A DNA stretch of 64,000 bases from Bacilli bacterium (GCA_017541325.1 JAFXZI010000001.1:5624-69623); one strand, 5' to 3'; shown: positions 34,718-41,852, counted from the stretch's first letter. The notes: a model not told the origin generated them from the letters alone. Program-made: numbers and translations.

Positions 34718-34784
34718 ATTACTACCTCTATATTTAGTATATTACATTTTGATTATATCATATTAGTTGTTTCTATTATTTGAC

Positions 34785-34820
34785 ACAAAAAAACGAACTA
34801 TAAAGTTCGTTTATTTTTAT
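34785..34820. terminator. Bidirectional hairpin (aacgaactataaagttcgtt) with flanking A/T-runs near the presumed element boundary
   Basis: Perfect 8-bp stem read directly. Confidence 0.4.
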
Positions 34821-35033
34821 ATGGGGCCATGATTTAACGTGTTTACGAAAAATCAGCACAAATCTATGAAATTGAGTTTGACTCAATTACTTGAATAAAA
34901 TATATCACAACATTTTGACATTTGCAAATATTTTTTCAATGTTCCTTATTCTCGAAAAAATTACTAGTGTAAGATAGGATAACTCTATTTTTAAAAACTA
35001 ATAAATAATGATATAATGATTATGGTGAATAAT

Positions 35034-36068
35034 ATGGGATTTATTAAAGATTTACTTGGAAATAATGATAAAAGAAAGATTATTGGTTATGGACATAAAG
35101 ATGAAGGCATGTTTGGAAGTTTATCAATTTATTCGAAAGATTTTAATGAACAATATGCTGAAAAAGTAGCTATTTTTTTACATAAAATGAAACGTGCTGA
35201 ATTAAAAGATAAAAATGAAGATTATATGAGTACTTTAAGATATTGGTATACGATTCCTTATCCACATGATCTGCATTTGCTACTCATAAAAGAAGGATAT
35301 TATACCAAGTCTGATATAAATAATATTTTAAATGCTAAAACGATTCCACAATTAAAAGATTTAGCAAAAGAATTAAATATCACTATAAAAGGTAAAAAAG
35401 ATGAACTAGTTAGCCAATTAGAAAGTCAAATGAGTGATAATAATAAGAATGAATTATTAAATAAATCAAGACTCTATATTCTATCAGACAAAGGAAATAG
35501 TTATTTGAATCAACACTCTGATTTTGTTACTTTAGCTGAACACTATATGTGGAATATAACACAAAAAGACCTTGATGATTTTAGAAGAAATAATCCAAAC
35601 TATTCAGTATATGAAATAGCTGAATCTATTCTTTTAAAAAGAATAAGTCATAGTCTGTCTATTGGTTTGAATAATTATTCATCCTCAACATGTCATTGCC
35701 TAGCCGAACTATATAATGAATTAGGTAATTCTAGAGAATCTCTAAAATTTTATATAGGATTATTATTGTTAGATATTAATATGACACATTTTCAGAATGA
35801 GGAGTTTTATGAAAGCTATGTTAATTCTGTAAAAGATGCATATAGCAACGAATCATATGGAGTTCTTCCACCGGGAATAATCAAAACAGTTTTAGATAAT
35901 AAGCGATTAATAGATGAAAAAATCATTCAAGAGGCATATGATTCTGTTAAAAATTGTAGTAAAATATATTTAACTAGTACTGAATTTGATAATATGATAC
36001 ATGATTTAATAGAAACTGATAAAATCGATGAGAAAAAGTATTTAAAATTAATAGTCAATAGATTATGA
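35034..36068 (+). CDS. SAP-domain-containing hypothetical protein (element cargo)
   Basis: LKDLAKELNITIKGKKDELVSQLESQ matches the SAP motif; RBS ggtga before MGFIKD. Confidence 0.4.
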   Translation: MGFIKDLLGNNDKRKIIGYGHKDEGMFGSLSIYSKDFNEQYAEKVAIFLHKMKRAELKDKNEDYMSTLRYWYTIPYPHDLHLLLIKEGYYTKSDINNILNAKTIPQLKDLAKELNITIKGKKDELVSQLESQMSDNNKNELLNKSRLYILSDKGNSYLNQHSDFVTLAEHYMWNITQKDLDDFRRNNPNYSVYEIAESILLKRISHSLSIGLNNYSSSTCHCLAELYNELGNSRESLKFYIGLLLLDINMTHFQNEEFYESYVNSVKDAYSNESYGVLPPGIIKTVLDNKRLIDEKIIQEAYDSVKNCSKIYLTSTEFDNMIHDLIETDKIDEKKYLKLIVNRL

Positions 36069-36084
36069 AAGAGAGGTATATTGA

Positions 36085-39386: not shown

Positions 39387-41207
39387 CTACTCAATTGTTT
39401 TCCAATTGGAGTAGACTATTGCAATTTTGTATTTGCCATCAAAATTGCCTTGTTCATCATAATGAACAATCGGTATCATTTTAAATATAGTTTTATCTTC
39501 AATACCTTCTTGATGGATTTCATATACATCTGTTTCCATAAGATTGTACTCTCCATCTAATAAGGTATATCCGATTTCTTCTTGCTTATCTATTTCATTT
39601 TTATACTTTTCAAATTCTTCAGGAGTAATTGCCATATTAGATCTTATAACTTCTTCTTTACCTTTAATCTTTACTCTGTGAGAAAATTCTAAAAGACCAT
39701 TTATTAATAAATTCTTTGCTCTCATTTTAGTAAAGTCTTTTAGTTTAATATCTTTAATAACTAAACCATCGACTGAATTGTCTTTTTTCTCAATAGTAAT
39801 GGACTCAATATATCTATTAACAAAGTATTGCTTATCAGTATCATCTTTTTGTTTCCATTCATTGAGTAAGAACTGAGTATTTTTAAAATCATTTAATGGA
39901 TATGAACTCTTATCTCTATTAATCATTACTTCTTCAATGGAGAATTGTTTACCTGAATCAACTTCAATTTGTTTTTCTTGTTCTGCTCTTAAATGCGTTA
40001 ATTTTTCATTAATTACTTTAATTGATTCATCTAAATCTTCTAATTCAATAACTCCAGTAGTATATGCAGTTTTAATTCTTTCTCTTTGTTTTGATAAATC
40101 TGCAATTTCTTTTGATAAATCGCTTACAGCAGGCTTTTTACTATTCTTTGCAAATATTGGTAAAAAATAATTATTGTATTCTTCATCTATTCTTAATAGG
40201 TTGGTAAGGATTTGAACAAATCTTTTTTCAACTTTAGCTTCATTTAAACTGTATCTACAAAATTCACAATTATAGTACATGTATTTACCATCATGTGCTC
40301 CAGAACCTTTACACTTCATTATTCTGCCACAATGAGGGCATAGTAATTTTTGAAAGAAGATATAAGTTCTATTTCTTGAGTAAGTTCTTTGATTCTTAAC
40401 TTTTTGATCCTGACATTCATCCCAAATGTATCTTGGAATAATAGGATCAACAACATCTACATAGATTATTGATTCTCTAGATTTATCAACTTTATATTGT
40501 TCATAATCTCCTTTATAGATTTTGTTGTCTATTATTTTTTCTACATTACCATCGCTCCAATTAGTTCTTCCTAATATTGCATTATCATTTAAATAATTAG
40601 CAACTTTTTGAAAACTTAATCCATTTCGATATAGTTCAAATATTTTTTCTACTACCCAACTAGTAGAGTGGTCGATAACTAATTTCTTATTAACATGTTT
40701 ATAACCGAATGGAGGCTTTCCAGGAAAATGTCCTTGTTTAATTGCACCAACTAATCCGAACTTTGTTCTTTCAGAAACTATTTCAATTTCAAGTTGTGAT
40801 AAGACAGTTAACATTCTTACGAAGAATCTACCATTAGCAGTAGAAGTGTTTACATCATCTCTATCACAAATTAGATAACACTTATTTGCTTCTAGTTCTG
40901 ATATTAATTCTTCTAAGTCTCTAACTGAACGAGTAACTCTATCAAGTTTATAAGCAACAATGGCATTTATCTTTTTATCTCTCATGTCTTTTAACATTTG
41001 TTGAAACTCAGGTCGATGTTCCATATCTTTTGCAGATATTCCAGCATCTTTATAAACTCTATAGATTTTATAACCTTTGTAATCACATAATGCTTTAAGC
41101 TTTTCTTCTTGTTCACCTAAACTAAAACCTTCTCGAGCTTGATCTTCTGTAGAAACTCTAATATAGATTCCTGCTACTATATCTTTTCTTTCTTCATCCA
41201 TAAACAT
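39387..41207 (-). CDS. Large serine recombinase (TnpX/TndX-like) with resolvase catalytic domain, recombinase domain and zinc ribbon
   Basis: [11 protein letters not shown] catalytic Ser motif, CPHCG...CEFC zinc ribbon, 606 aa. Confidence 0.85.
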
Positions 41208-41402
41208 AACTCCTTTCTTACTAAAAAAAGAGAGTCAAAAGTATTCTACGAGTAAATACTTCTAACTCTCATTTGTTTATCATTATAAATTTTTTCCAAT
41301 ATTCTTTTTCTTTGTTTCTTCATTGATGTACCTCCATTTCTAGAGAATACCTCTTTCATTGGTTATTTATAATAATCATTTTGCAAATGAAAGTCAATAG
41401 TA

Positions 41403-41684
41403 TTAACCCAAGTATGCATGTTTTAGTTGAGAACTTAGTTCTGAAAAAGGGAATTGGTTCTCATAAGAATTGATAAAAAAGTAATCTTTACCATTTAGAA
41501 ATAGAAAAACATTATTATTTATTTCTATTTTATGTGGTTCTAGATAAGCCATATTAGTCGGTTCTAGCCTTATTAAAGCTCCTTTCTGCACCTTTACCTT
41601 AATAGATGCATATTTGACTGCCCAATTTATTTTCTTTTCTAAATCGGGGCTTAAATTGATTTCTTGTCTGATTTCATTAATCAT
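41403..41684 (-). CDS. Small hypothetical protein between the recombinase and tRNA-His; terminated by the nested hairpin at 41243-41283
   Basis: ORF; downstream hairpin gagagt...agtatt...aatact...actctc plus T-run. Confidence 0.35.
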   Translation of the reverse strand: MINEIRQEINLSPDLEKKINWAVKYASIKVKVQKGALIRLEPTNMAYLEPHKIEINNNVFLFLNGKDYFFINSYENQFPFSELSSQLKHAYLG

Positions 41685-41775
41685 AATCGTCTCATTCCTT
41701 TCTTAAACACAAAAAAACTCAATTTTAGCAATTGAGTCTATCTGTAAGTCGAAAAATTTCGACGATTTTCATAAA

Positions 41776-41852
41776 TGGGGCGGAATAAGGGGATCGAACC
41801 CTTGCATACCGGAGCCACAATCCGGCGTGTTAACCACTTCACCAATACCGCC
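41776..41852 (-). tRNA. tRNA-His (anticodon GTG), CCA encoded, with G-1
   Basis: Minus strand reads G-GCGGTAT...anticodon stem CCGGA/TCCGG with loop TTGTGGC (GTG anticodon), T-arm AAGGGTTCGATCCCTT, acceptor ATTCCGC-C-CCA. Confidence 0.85.

Follow-up and report, generated by a model that had tools for sequence, protein, structure and literature searches.

Organisation of the element

A stretch of 64,000 nucleotides from the genome of a Bacilli bacterium (GCA_017541325.1, JAFXZI010000001.1:5624-69623; hereafter the window) carries a compact element of 6,954 bp, at positions 34828-41781 counting one copy of its flanking repeat, at the 3' end of a tRNA-His(GTG) gene. The element is very probably an integrative mobilisable element (IME) driven by a large serine recombinase (LSR) and specific for tRNA gene 3' termini. 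Six open reading frames (ORFs), all of full length, encode a SAP-domain protein, a DUF4236 protein, a 104-aa protein, a MobV relaxase, the LSR and a 93-aa protein, and a check for further units found the window to hold this one element only. A preliminary description of the window had named the LSR, the relaxase, the DUF4236 and SAP proteins and the tRNA, all of which were confirmed by the ORF list, domain scans, ARAGORN and Rfam; two conserved genes of the element, the 104-aa and 93-aa ORFs, were missing from it. Its proposal of a mobilisable element integrated at tRNA-His with DUF4236 and SAP cargo is supported, an LSR and a MobV relaxase being present without conjugation genes. The surrounding host chromosome is that of a low-GC Firmicute (approximately 26% GC).

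The LSR is the sole recombinase of the element. Pfam scans identified a Resolvase domain (122.8 bits), a Recombinase domain (60.1 bits) and a weak zinc ribbon (18.5 bits), with weak coiled-coil-type matches at residues 335-434; from the catalytic motif, YIRVSTEDQ, the serine is residue 19. The protein matches phrog_95, annotated as 'integrase' (E=1e-109), and the closest solved catalytic domain is that of TP901-1 integrase (E=2e-22). Identification as an SCC-type CcrB (137 bits against an NCBIfam cutoff of 900) or as XisF (126.8 bits against 375) was rejected. The exact protein had no record in the assembly index, no plasmid-borne LSR in PLSDB exceeded 32% identity and nothing resembling the element at the DNA level was found in the plasmid collection.

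Boundaries and the tRNA-His target

The element is delimited by a 7-bp repeat, ATGGGGC, present at both ends, where the preliminary description had seen no obvious direct repeats. The distal copy is the sole GCCCCAT in approximately 39 kb on the left side. The displaced tRNA fragment at this far end amounts to only 6 nt of tRNA plus 1 nt, and the intact tRNA stands at the other end. Both ends are confirmed by three independent breaks in homology. Loci L032 and L033, whose LSRs are 98% identical to that of the window, are identical to it from the base after the tRNA CCA inward, and their tRNA-His and outer flank (CotJB) differ from those of the window. For loci L108-L111 the similarity (89% identity) runs from exactly 34821 to 37429, with unrelated sequence further left, and in two units at locus L003 homology begins at the same left position, 34821. 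The left end formerly placed at 34720 thus moves to 34821/34828, as set by the direct repeat and the start of homology. From the span first assigned to the element, 34720-41852, the part covering the element stands; the tRNA is host DNA, and only its last 6 nt, with 1 nt more, overlap the repeat. Ends flanked by a GA dinucleotide, also anticipated, are not there, the common core being GC(C/T)CCA.

Just outside the distal repeat lies an A-run, hairpin and T-run that is most likely the native trailer or terminator of tRNA-His, displaced by the insertion. The same arrangement directly follows GCCCCA at locus L004 and at L005. At L004 the tRNA end is followed directly by this terminator and housekeeping genes, which supplies the unoccupied tRNA-His site that the preliminary description had proposed seeking in related genomes; L004 has the tRNA allele of remnant locus L073 and the CotJB synteny of the occupied loci L032 and L033. 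Locus L005 shows no arm sequence in the 165 nt available after tRNA-His and is a candidate empty site. Locus L003 was rejected as an empty site, since it holds two LSR-less units with distal arms 89-93% identical.

Two contigs of related genomes (L001:1-80 and L005:1-241) stop 4-165 nt from the tRNA-His 3' end, as would be expected if assemblies break at polymorphic or repeated junctions. At L073:5400-5640, tRNA-His is followed by two proximal hairpins without the 93-aa gene or the LSR, and a TasA/signal-peptidase-like operon comes next; on this layout the locus is a scar or remnant of an element.

Table 1. Features of the element and its junctions (window coordinates)
Feature	Position	Strand	Remarks
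Terminator hairpin just outside the element	34791..34812	-	Terminator scan; A-run, hairpin, T-run
Distal direct repeat ATGGGGC (reverse complement GCCCCAT)	34821..34827	.	tRNA-His 3' terminus in displaced copy; marks the junction remote from the tRNA
Distal arm, P half of attP	34828..34945	.	Conserved; TTTCG 18 nt from GC centre
SAP protein, 350 aa (cargo gene 1)	35016..36068	+	Pfam SAP 24.3 bits, cutoff 23.9; marginal
DUF4236 protein, 447 aa (cargo gene 2)	36085..37428	+	Pfam 74.1 bits, N-terminal 56 aa only
Bidirectional terminator between cargo and backbone	37468..37495	.	Terminator scan
104-aa ORF	37498..37812	-	Downstream of mob; 66% conserved in closer relatives (tblastn: L034, L035, L089)
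MobV (Mob_Pre) relaxase	37818..39131	-	Pfam Mob_Pre 53.7 bits, cutoff 25.5
Candidate oriT region (LSR-mob spacer, 255 nt)	39132..39386	-	Inverted repeat and covariation
LSR, 606 aa	39387..41207	-	Resolvase, Recombinase, weak Zn_ribbon_recom
LSR leader region	41208..41402	-	Promoter, 25-aa ORF, intrinsic terminator
Intrinsic terminator of leader	41230-41270	-	Overlaps stop codon of leader ORF, abuts LSR ribosome-binding site
Leader ORF, 25 aa, MKKQRKRILEKIYNDKQMRVRSIYS	41246-41323	-	Conserved short ORF
Sigma70-like LSR promoter	41369-41397	-	Conserved TTGAC(T/A)-17-TATTAT
93-aa ORF, LSR partner	41403..41684	-	Same position in every complete family member
Proximal arm, P' half of attP	41685..41774	-	Hairpin 1 at 41748-41763; hairpin 2 and T-run at 41718-41736
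Proximal direct repeat ATGGGGC	41775..41781	.	True tRNA-His 3' end GCCCCA plus 1 nt
tRNA-His(GTG), host target gene, intact after insertion	41776..41851	-	ARAGORN; Rfam tRNA 58.9 bits

Related elements and target specificity

Searches with the LSR returned a homologue of 98% identity, homologues of approximately 68-69% and a very large cloud at approximately 52-53%. The relatives share a common layout of tRNA end, terminator, 93-aa ORF, promoter, short leader ORF, terminator, LSR, oriT (origin of transfer) hairpin, Mob and variable cargo. Elements with LSRs of 96-99% identity abut at least seven different tRNA-His sequences with different flanks, which points to recent spread between species. 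Those with LSRs of approximately 68% (L034, L035, L070 and L094) and 52% (P0061, P0008 and others) occupy the same position of tRNA-Gly; an identical P0061 LSR was found at tRNA-Gly(TCC) in one host and at tRNA-Gly(GCC) in another. Every complete copy examined by context abuts a tRNA 3' end, and over 30 relatives are inserted at a single, exact position in tRNA-His or tRNA-Gly. The LSR clade tracks the target, the core being GCCCCA for the 96-99% clade and GCTCCA for the others. These two cores, His-type and Gly-type, differ only at the discriminator base.

A census was made by searching metagenomes with a degenerate pattern consisting of CCA plus the proximal arm. It yielded 66 loci, 32 of which abut a recognisable tRNA (14 Gly-TCC, 10 Gly-GCC and 8 His). 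At approximately 16 the core and proximal arm follow non-tRNA DNA; the remainder were cut too near the junction (5) or were chance matches in unrelated sequence (approximately 13).

Some of these sites hold more than one unit. At L065/L074, tRNA-Gly(GCC) is followed by a complete element of a second LSR and Mob_Pre family, then by GCTCCA and the proximal arm of the window's family; the second family has the same gene order, its LSR being 27% and its Mob 42% identical to those of the window. The upstream arm at L045 is homologous to the distal arm of this second family. At L037 a P0061 element ends as in L036, after which comes an LSR-less unit with its own type of arm. In the arrays of LSR-less units at L108 and L003, every unit is delimited by a hairpin, the heptamer ATGGGGC or ATGTGGC, and a distal arm that shares 82-93% identity with the window's. 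Recombinase-less units in tandem at tRNA-His or tRNA-Gly were located at L003:6484-9525, L108:1500-6500 and L037:17310-19525, and some have a distinct type of proximal arm, TGTGAAATC plus a hairpin. Such units are candidates for cassettes mobilised in trans.

The same host locus is seen with different contents in L036:6942-9237 and L034:8768-9364. An extra block upstream of tRNA-Gly in L036, absent in L034, encodes a reverse transcriptase (RVT_1, 316 aa), a 183-aa ORF and a B3_4-domain protein.

Whether the LSR itself places the element deserves comment. tRNA genes are where genomic islands classically integrate. The tRNA blocks that tyrosine integrases use are longer, reaching into the T-loop or anticodon loop, and the islands that these enzymes form usually leave longer tRNA fragments than the one found here. 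According to the literature only tyrosine integrases are known at tRNA genes (PMC4383910), and LSR-less units with the same arms exist, so that the island might have been placed by a tyrosine integrase, now lost or supplied in trans, with another role for the LSR, such as resolution or inversion. This alternative is very unlikely. No tyrosine recombinase (Phage_integrase domain) was found in the element or in any complete relative, and in the complete relatives the LSR gene is always within approximately 600 nt of the junction, with LSR clades tracking both target tRNA and core. The repeats, at 7-11 bp, are very short, as is typical for serine integrases (PMC10484663), and the same layout recurs in the family whose LSR is only 27% identical. 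We infer from these associations that the LSR catalyses the integration.

Attachment sites and proposed mechanism

Distal junctions could be defined for four elements, with repeats GCCCCAT, GCTCCATA, TGCTCCA and TTGCTCCATTT (7-11 bp), and their overlap is GC(T/C)CCA. On these sequences the crossover must lie within GC(T/C)CCA. The reconstructed attachment site of the circular element (attP) is centred on AATCATGGCCCCATTTATGAAAATCGTCG, the predicted circle junction of the excised element reads AAATCATGGCCCCATTTATGAAAATCG and the predicted restored empty tRNA-His site TTATTCCGCCCCATATAAAAATAAACG. In all four reconstructed attP sites TT(T/G)C(G/T) and CG(A/G)AA lie 18 nt to either side of a GC step, and in the chromosomal site (attB) the tRNA T-loop, GT(T/C)CG, lies 13 nt from the same GC step. 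In the attB of a Listeria integrase the zinc-ribbon motif is shifted 5 bp inward (PMC3783163), and the spacings of 18 and 13 nt match this shift. These spacings weakly suggest that the T-loop and acceptor end serve the LSR as a B half-site. Since a GC centre would be palindromic, the centre of the crossover may instead be shifted one base, so as to take in the discriminator.

The distal arm continues beyond its outer motif for approximately 90 nt more, with an AATTGAG..CTCAATT hairpin and promoter-like sites. It is 87-93% identical to the arms at L003 (two copies) and L108 (two copies); the adjoining cargo differs. The proximal arm, read from the tRNA, starts TTTATGAAAATCGTCGAAA and is identical in the window, L032, L033 and other His-type copies, and the stretch AAAATCGTCG(A/G)AA is invariant in proximal arms across the family. 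Hairpin 2 of this arm stands in for the tRNA terminator and runs into the ribosome-binding site of the 93-aa gene. Hairpins at 34869-34886 and 41718-41736, one in each arm, have the same stem, AATTGAG/CTCAATT, at a distance of approximately 40-60 nt from the crossover, and might act as insulating terminators or be bound by an accessory protein.

On the proposed mechanism, the LSR would join the circular attP to the 3' terminus of a chromosomal tRNA-His (attB), the strands being exchanged within GC(C)CCA, the final six bases of the tRNA gene; these span the acceptor-stem end, the discriminator and CCA. The tRNA would be regenerated unchanged, since the element carries the same bases, and would gain a new trailer and terminator from the element. 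At the far junction, beside the original terminator, 7 bp copied from the tRNA end would remain. For transfer, the relaxase would nick oriT and a co-resident conjugative element would transfer the excised circle.

Assessment of the proposed IME

The element has its own integrase between direct repeats, and a relaxase with an oriT candidate and without mating-pore genes, as an IME should. The comparisons described above establish at the level of sequence its boundaries, site specificity, horizontal spread, modular cargo and an unoccupied site.

Several observations weigh against reading it as a functional, tRNA-specific IME. Dyad symmetry of the reconstructed attP and attB did not exceed that of shuffled sequence, only the outer TTTCG/CGAAA being symmetric, and the motif spacing implies a GC centre, whose palindromic nature is unusual for a serine integrase, the sites of these enzymes (approximately 50 bp for attP and 40 bp for attB) having a non-palindromic dinucleotide at the centre. 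An excised circle or attP junction was not found, and among 76 loci no contig had a terminal overlap save one unrelated match. The non-tRNA junctions that resolved (L065/L074, L045, L108, L003 and L037, with approximately ten others unassigned) were tandem arrays. Loci L004 and L005 belong to related species or genera (CadA 66% and 83% identical) and are not same-species empty sites. The terminator at the distal junction could belong to the end of an older, decayed unit instead of to the native chromosome; the window contains no further arm or tRNA fragment. Finally, the element could be intact but currently inactive.

This last point amounts to a fixed remnant, with genes intact, that no longer excises or transfers in this host. 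It is rather unlikely. The failure to find a circular junction would fit it, as would the tight insulation of the LSR by terminators, and sites of this kind commonly hold remnants and LSR-less units (L073, L003 and L108). Against this, none of the six ORFs is truncated, the two arms are intact, the proximal one being identical to its counterpart in the other His-type copies, and the presence of 98-99% identical LSRs in several other hosts points to recent transfer.

The recombinase leader and the 93-aa protein

Between the joint and the first gene stand two hairpins, including one terminator, and the LSR has its own promoter (Table 1). In work attributed to Lyras and Rood in 2000, a Tn4451-type recombinase promoter is said to be assembled at the joint of the circular form. 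No junction-spanning -35/-10 pair was seen by eye at the reconstructed joint of the present element.

The leader between this promoter and the LSR contains, in addition to its short ORF and intrinsic terminator, a hairpin that covers a ribosome-binding site between promoter and short ORF. Among 21 distinct leaders 19 retain an ORF of 19-27 aa, and the terminator stem shows compensatory substitutions. The leader is kept in the family with 27% identical LSRs, with the same order of parts and a leader peptide with a common K-I-Y motif. No Rfam family matched it. From this organisation we infer that the LSR would be under attenuator-type control by a leader peptide. The layout was also seen in L034, L036, L041, L065 and others.

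The 93-aa ORF has an analogue of 94 aa in the 27%-identity LSR family. Its AlphaFold 2 (AF2) model has a predicted local distance difference test score (pLDDT) of 70.5; no fold match was obtained, nor any family match in Pfam, NCBIfam, PHROG or PADLOC. The protein is a candidate directionality or regulatory factor.

Mobilisation module

A MobV relaxase is kept in all members of the family. Its translation contains the motifs HxxR (NHNLR) and HxDE..PHxH (HYDEASPHMH), and no match to the solved MobM was found at the sequence level. The spacer between LSR and mob is more conserved than the genes that flank it and contains a perfect 9-bp inverted repeat, TGTCAAAAT/ATTTTGACA (39189-39222), with the loop TAGGGAGTTAG. 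The loop TAGGGnGTTA is conserved; the stems differ by subfamily yet remain complementary, being CAAGATAT/ATATCTTG in the L036 type (the 52% subfamily). TGTCAAAAT shows no significant enrichment in the window, with 4 copies where 1.9 are expected, and the role assigned to it therefore rests on the inverted repeat and its covariation. On these grounds the hairpin is a candidate oriT. The 104-aa ORF downstream of mob had no significant family match in Pfam, NCBIfam or PHROG. Since neither the element nor the window contains mating-pore or type IV secretion system genes, transfer would need a helper conjugative element.

When L032, L033 and L089 are compared with window positions 37818-41207, the LSR is 98% identical and the neighbouring relaxase only 75-83%. 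This mosaicism indicates exchange between integration and mobilisation modules.

Cargo genes

The SAP protein has its DNA-binding motif at residues 105-133. The DUF4236 protein had been described as having a long acidic tail; its model (AF2 pLDDT 84.6) shows instead N-terminal beta repeats and long helices, followed by a C-terminal alpha/beta domain, with no fold match in the PDB (best E=0.14). It matches phrog_38135 over its full length (E=8e-75) and has 692 homologues, many of them full length, across the Firmicutes.

The SAP and DUF4236 genes recur as a paired cassette in L108-L111 (91% protein and 89% DNA identity), where they adjoin SHOCT and NERD/zinc-ribbon genes. Remoter homologues of DUF4236 have no SAP partner, and are found near Type I restriction-modification, UvrD or FtsK-like genes or in a plain chromosomal setting. 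Other relatives carry different genes in the same slot: a helix-turn-helix regulator, two N6/N4 methyltransferases and a ResIII helicase in L034 and L035, a C5 methylase, an ASCH protein and others in L036-L040, and an OpuA-type ATP-binding cassette (ABC) transporter in L041. PADLOC gave no match for the SAP, DUF4236, 104-aa or 93-aa proteins. By analogy the SAP-DUF4236 pair is a candidate accessory or defence module; the idea of defence stems solely from the restriction-modification genes that two relatives hold in this slot.

The phrog_95 and phrog_38135 matches, together with the occurrence of the DUF4236 N-terminal domain in Clostridioides and Roseburia phages, might suggest a phage satellite or a prophage remnant with a phage-type serine integrase. 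The probability of such an origin is close to negligible. The element has no capsid, terminase, portal or lysis genes and does have a relaxase and an oriT candidate; its junction motif had zero matches in IMG/VR, and sequenced phages match only the first 56-66 residues of the DUF4236 protein.

Relation to known systems

The preliminary description had assigned the element to the Tn4451/Tn4453 family of Clostridium perfringens and Clostridioides difficile, which would make it a TnpX-driven mobilisable transposon of low target specificity, lying beside tRNA-His by chance. The resemblance is real: both are 6-7 kb long, with a single LSR to serve integration and excision, a relaxase of the MobV/Pre family and no mating-pore genes, and Tn4451 is the classical serine-recombinase IME (PMC5704250). 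The Tn4451 relaxase TnpZ, with its upstream oriT (RS_A) for mobilisation in trans, has a possible counterpart in the Mob_Pre relaxase and the covarying hairpin of the present element. Membership is nevertheless highly improbable, and the assignment is not supported. TnpX/TndX-type LSRs belong to the multi-targeting clade with DUF4368. That domain marks the multi-targeting LSR clade (PMC10083194), whereas the LSR of the window, set against TnpX by the latter's description, gave no DUF4368 match in Pfam scans even at E<=10; nor did it exceed 32% identity to PLSDB LSRs, and its best NCBIfam matches, CcrB and XisF, were far below cutoff. Tn4451 integrates with low specificity through 2-bp identity (PMC5704250), unlike the present element, with its strict site specificity, one tRNA-His position and 7-bp repeat, and unlike its more than 30 relatives at one exact tRNA-His or tRNA-Gly nucleotide with repeats of 7-11 bp. 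No cat gene or Tn4451 accessory gene was found by Pfam and NCBIfam among the ORFs; catP/catD and tnpV, tnpW and tnpY are absent, and in their stead the element has the 93-aa ORF, the putative leader attenuator and the 104-aa ORF. Gene order, the conserved 93-aa ORF and the leader differ from what is reportedly found in Tn4451.

Streptococcal IMEs with serine integrases, which target for example rumA, traG, maff2 and SNF2 genes, likewise include some with MobV (MOBV1) relaxases and demonstrated mobilisation (PMC5357655, PMC12084326). They differ in inserting inside protein-coding genes, which they disrupt. Tyrosine-integrase islands of the Islander class are similar in their tRNA 3' target, the regenerated gene, the tRNA fragment at the far end and the tandem accretion with decayed units, and differ in that the enzyme here is of the serine type and the duplicated tRNA segment is only 6-10 nt, comprising the acceptor-stem end and CCA. 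The serine integrases of phages (A118/LI, TP901-1, Bxb1 and phiC31) have the same order of Resolvase, Recombinase, zinc ribbon and coiled coil, and the geometry of the attachment sites is consistent with their 5-bp shift of the zinc-ribbon-domain (ZD) motif between attP and attB. The LSR of the window differs from them in its approximately 120 extra C-terminal residues, its location on a mobilisable element, its tRNA target, and the conserved small upstream ORF and putative leader attenuator.

Cis-mobilisable elements (CIMEs) derive from integrative and conjugative elements (ICEs), as for ICESt1 and ICESt3. The recombinase-less units at L003, L037 and L108 resemble CIMEs in being bounded by att-type sequences and lying in tandem with autonomous elements; unlike CIMEs, they keep a conserved arm of approximately 100 bp and a pseudo-tRNA end, and are arrayed at tRNA 3' ends.

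A 2022 survey of LSRs gives protein targets only and never mentions tRNA (PMC10083194), and in reviews of IMEs and ICEs the insertion sites of serine integrases lie within protein-coding genes. The literature searched, which left out the 2020 TIGER paper and database, yielded no report of a tRNA-targeting serine integrase. The LSRs described here thus apparently form a widespread gut-bacterial family with tRNA-His/tRNA-Gly specificity that is undescribed in that literature. If this is true, such a family would revise the rule that tRNA genes are used by tyrosine integrases only, and would explain islands that escape tools limited to tyrosine integrases. Short sites suffice for serine integrases, which, unlike many tyrosine integrases, require no host cofactors. 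An LSR whose attB is a near-universal tRNA 3' end could therefore become a tool for non-disruptive integration in intractable low-GC gut bacteria, with the leader ORF and terminator and the invariant 93-aa partner as handles on the control of integration and excision. Given the restriction-modification cargo in two relatives and the transporter in a third, the SAP-DUF4236 pair is likewise a candidate for an accessory or defence role.

A wider scheme is conceivable, and is put forward tentatively as a speculation. The LSR family would specify the tRNA, with C73 (His) or U73 (Gly) switching the target, and would also act on arrays of cassettes that lack a recombinase. In this way the tRNA 3' end would become an integron-like docking platform at which defence and accessory genes, SAP-DUF4236 among them, are shuffled among gut Firmicutes.

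Other features of the window

RNase P class B, the glmS ribozyme, ispG, PBP1 and glmS are also present in the window. Between ispG and the element (32500-34717) lie ORFs of 141, 174, 185 and 182 aa that had no Pfam or NCBIfam match, the last three also having no match in PADLOC. This block is possibly an older island; an attachment-site remnant was looked for there and not found. Further upstream, at 28850-31317, are five successive minus-strand ORFs of 146-177 aa that were negative in Pfam, at least two of which look paralogous, sharing a ...PDY...EKWY... pattern.

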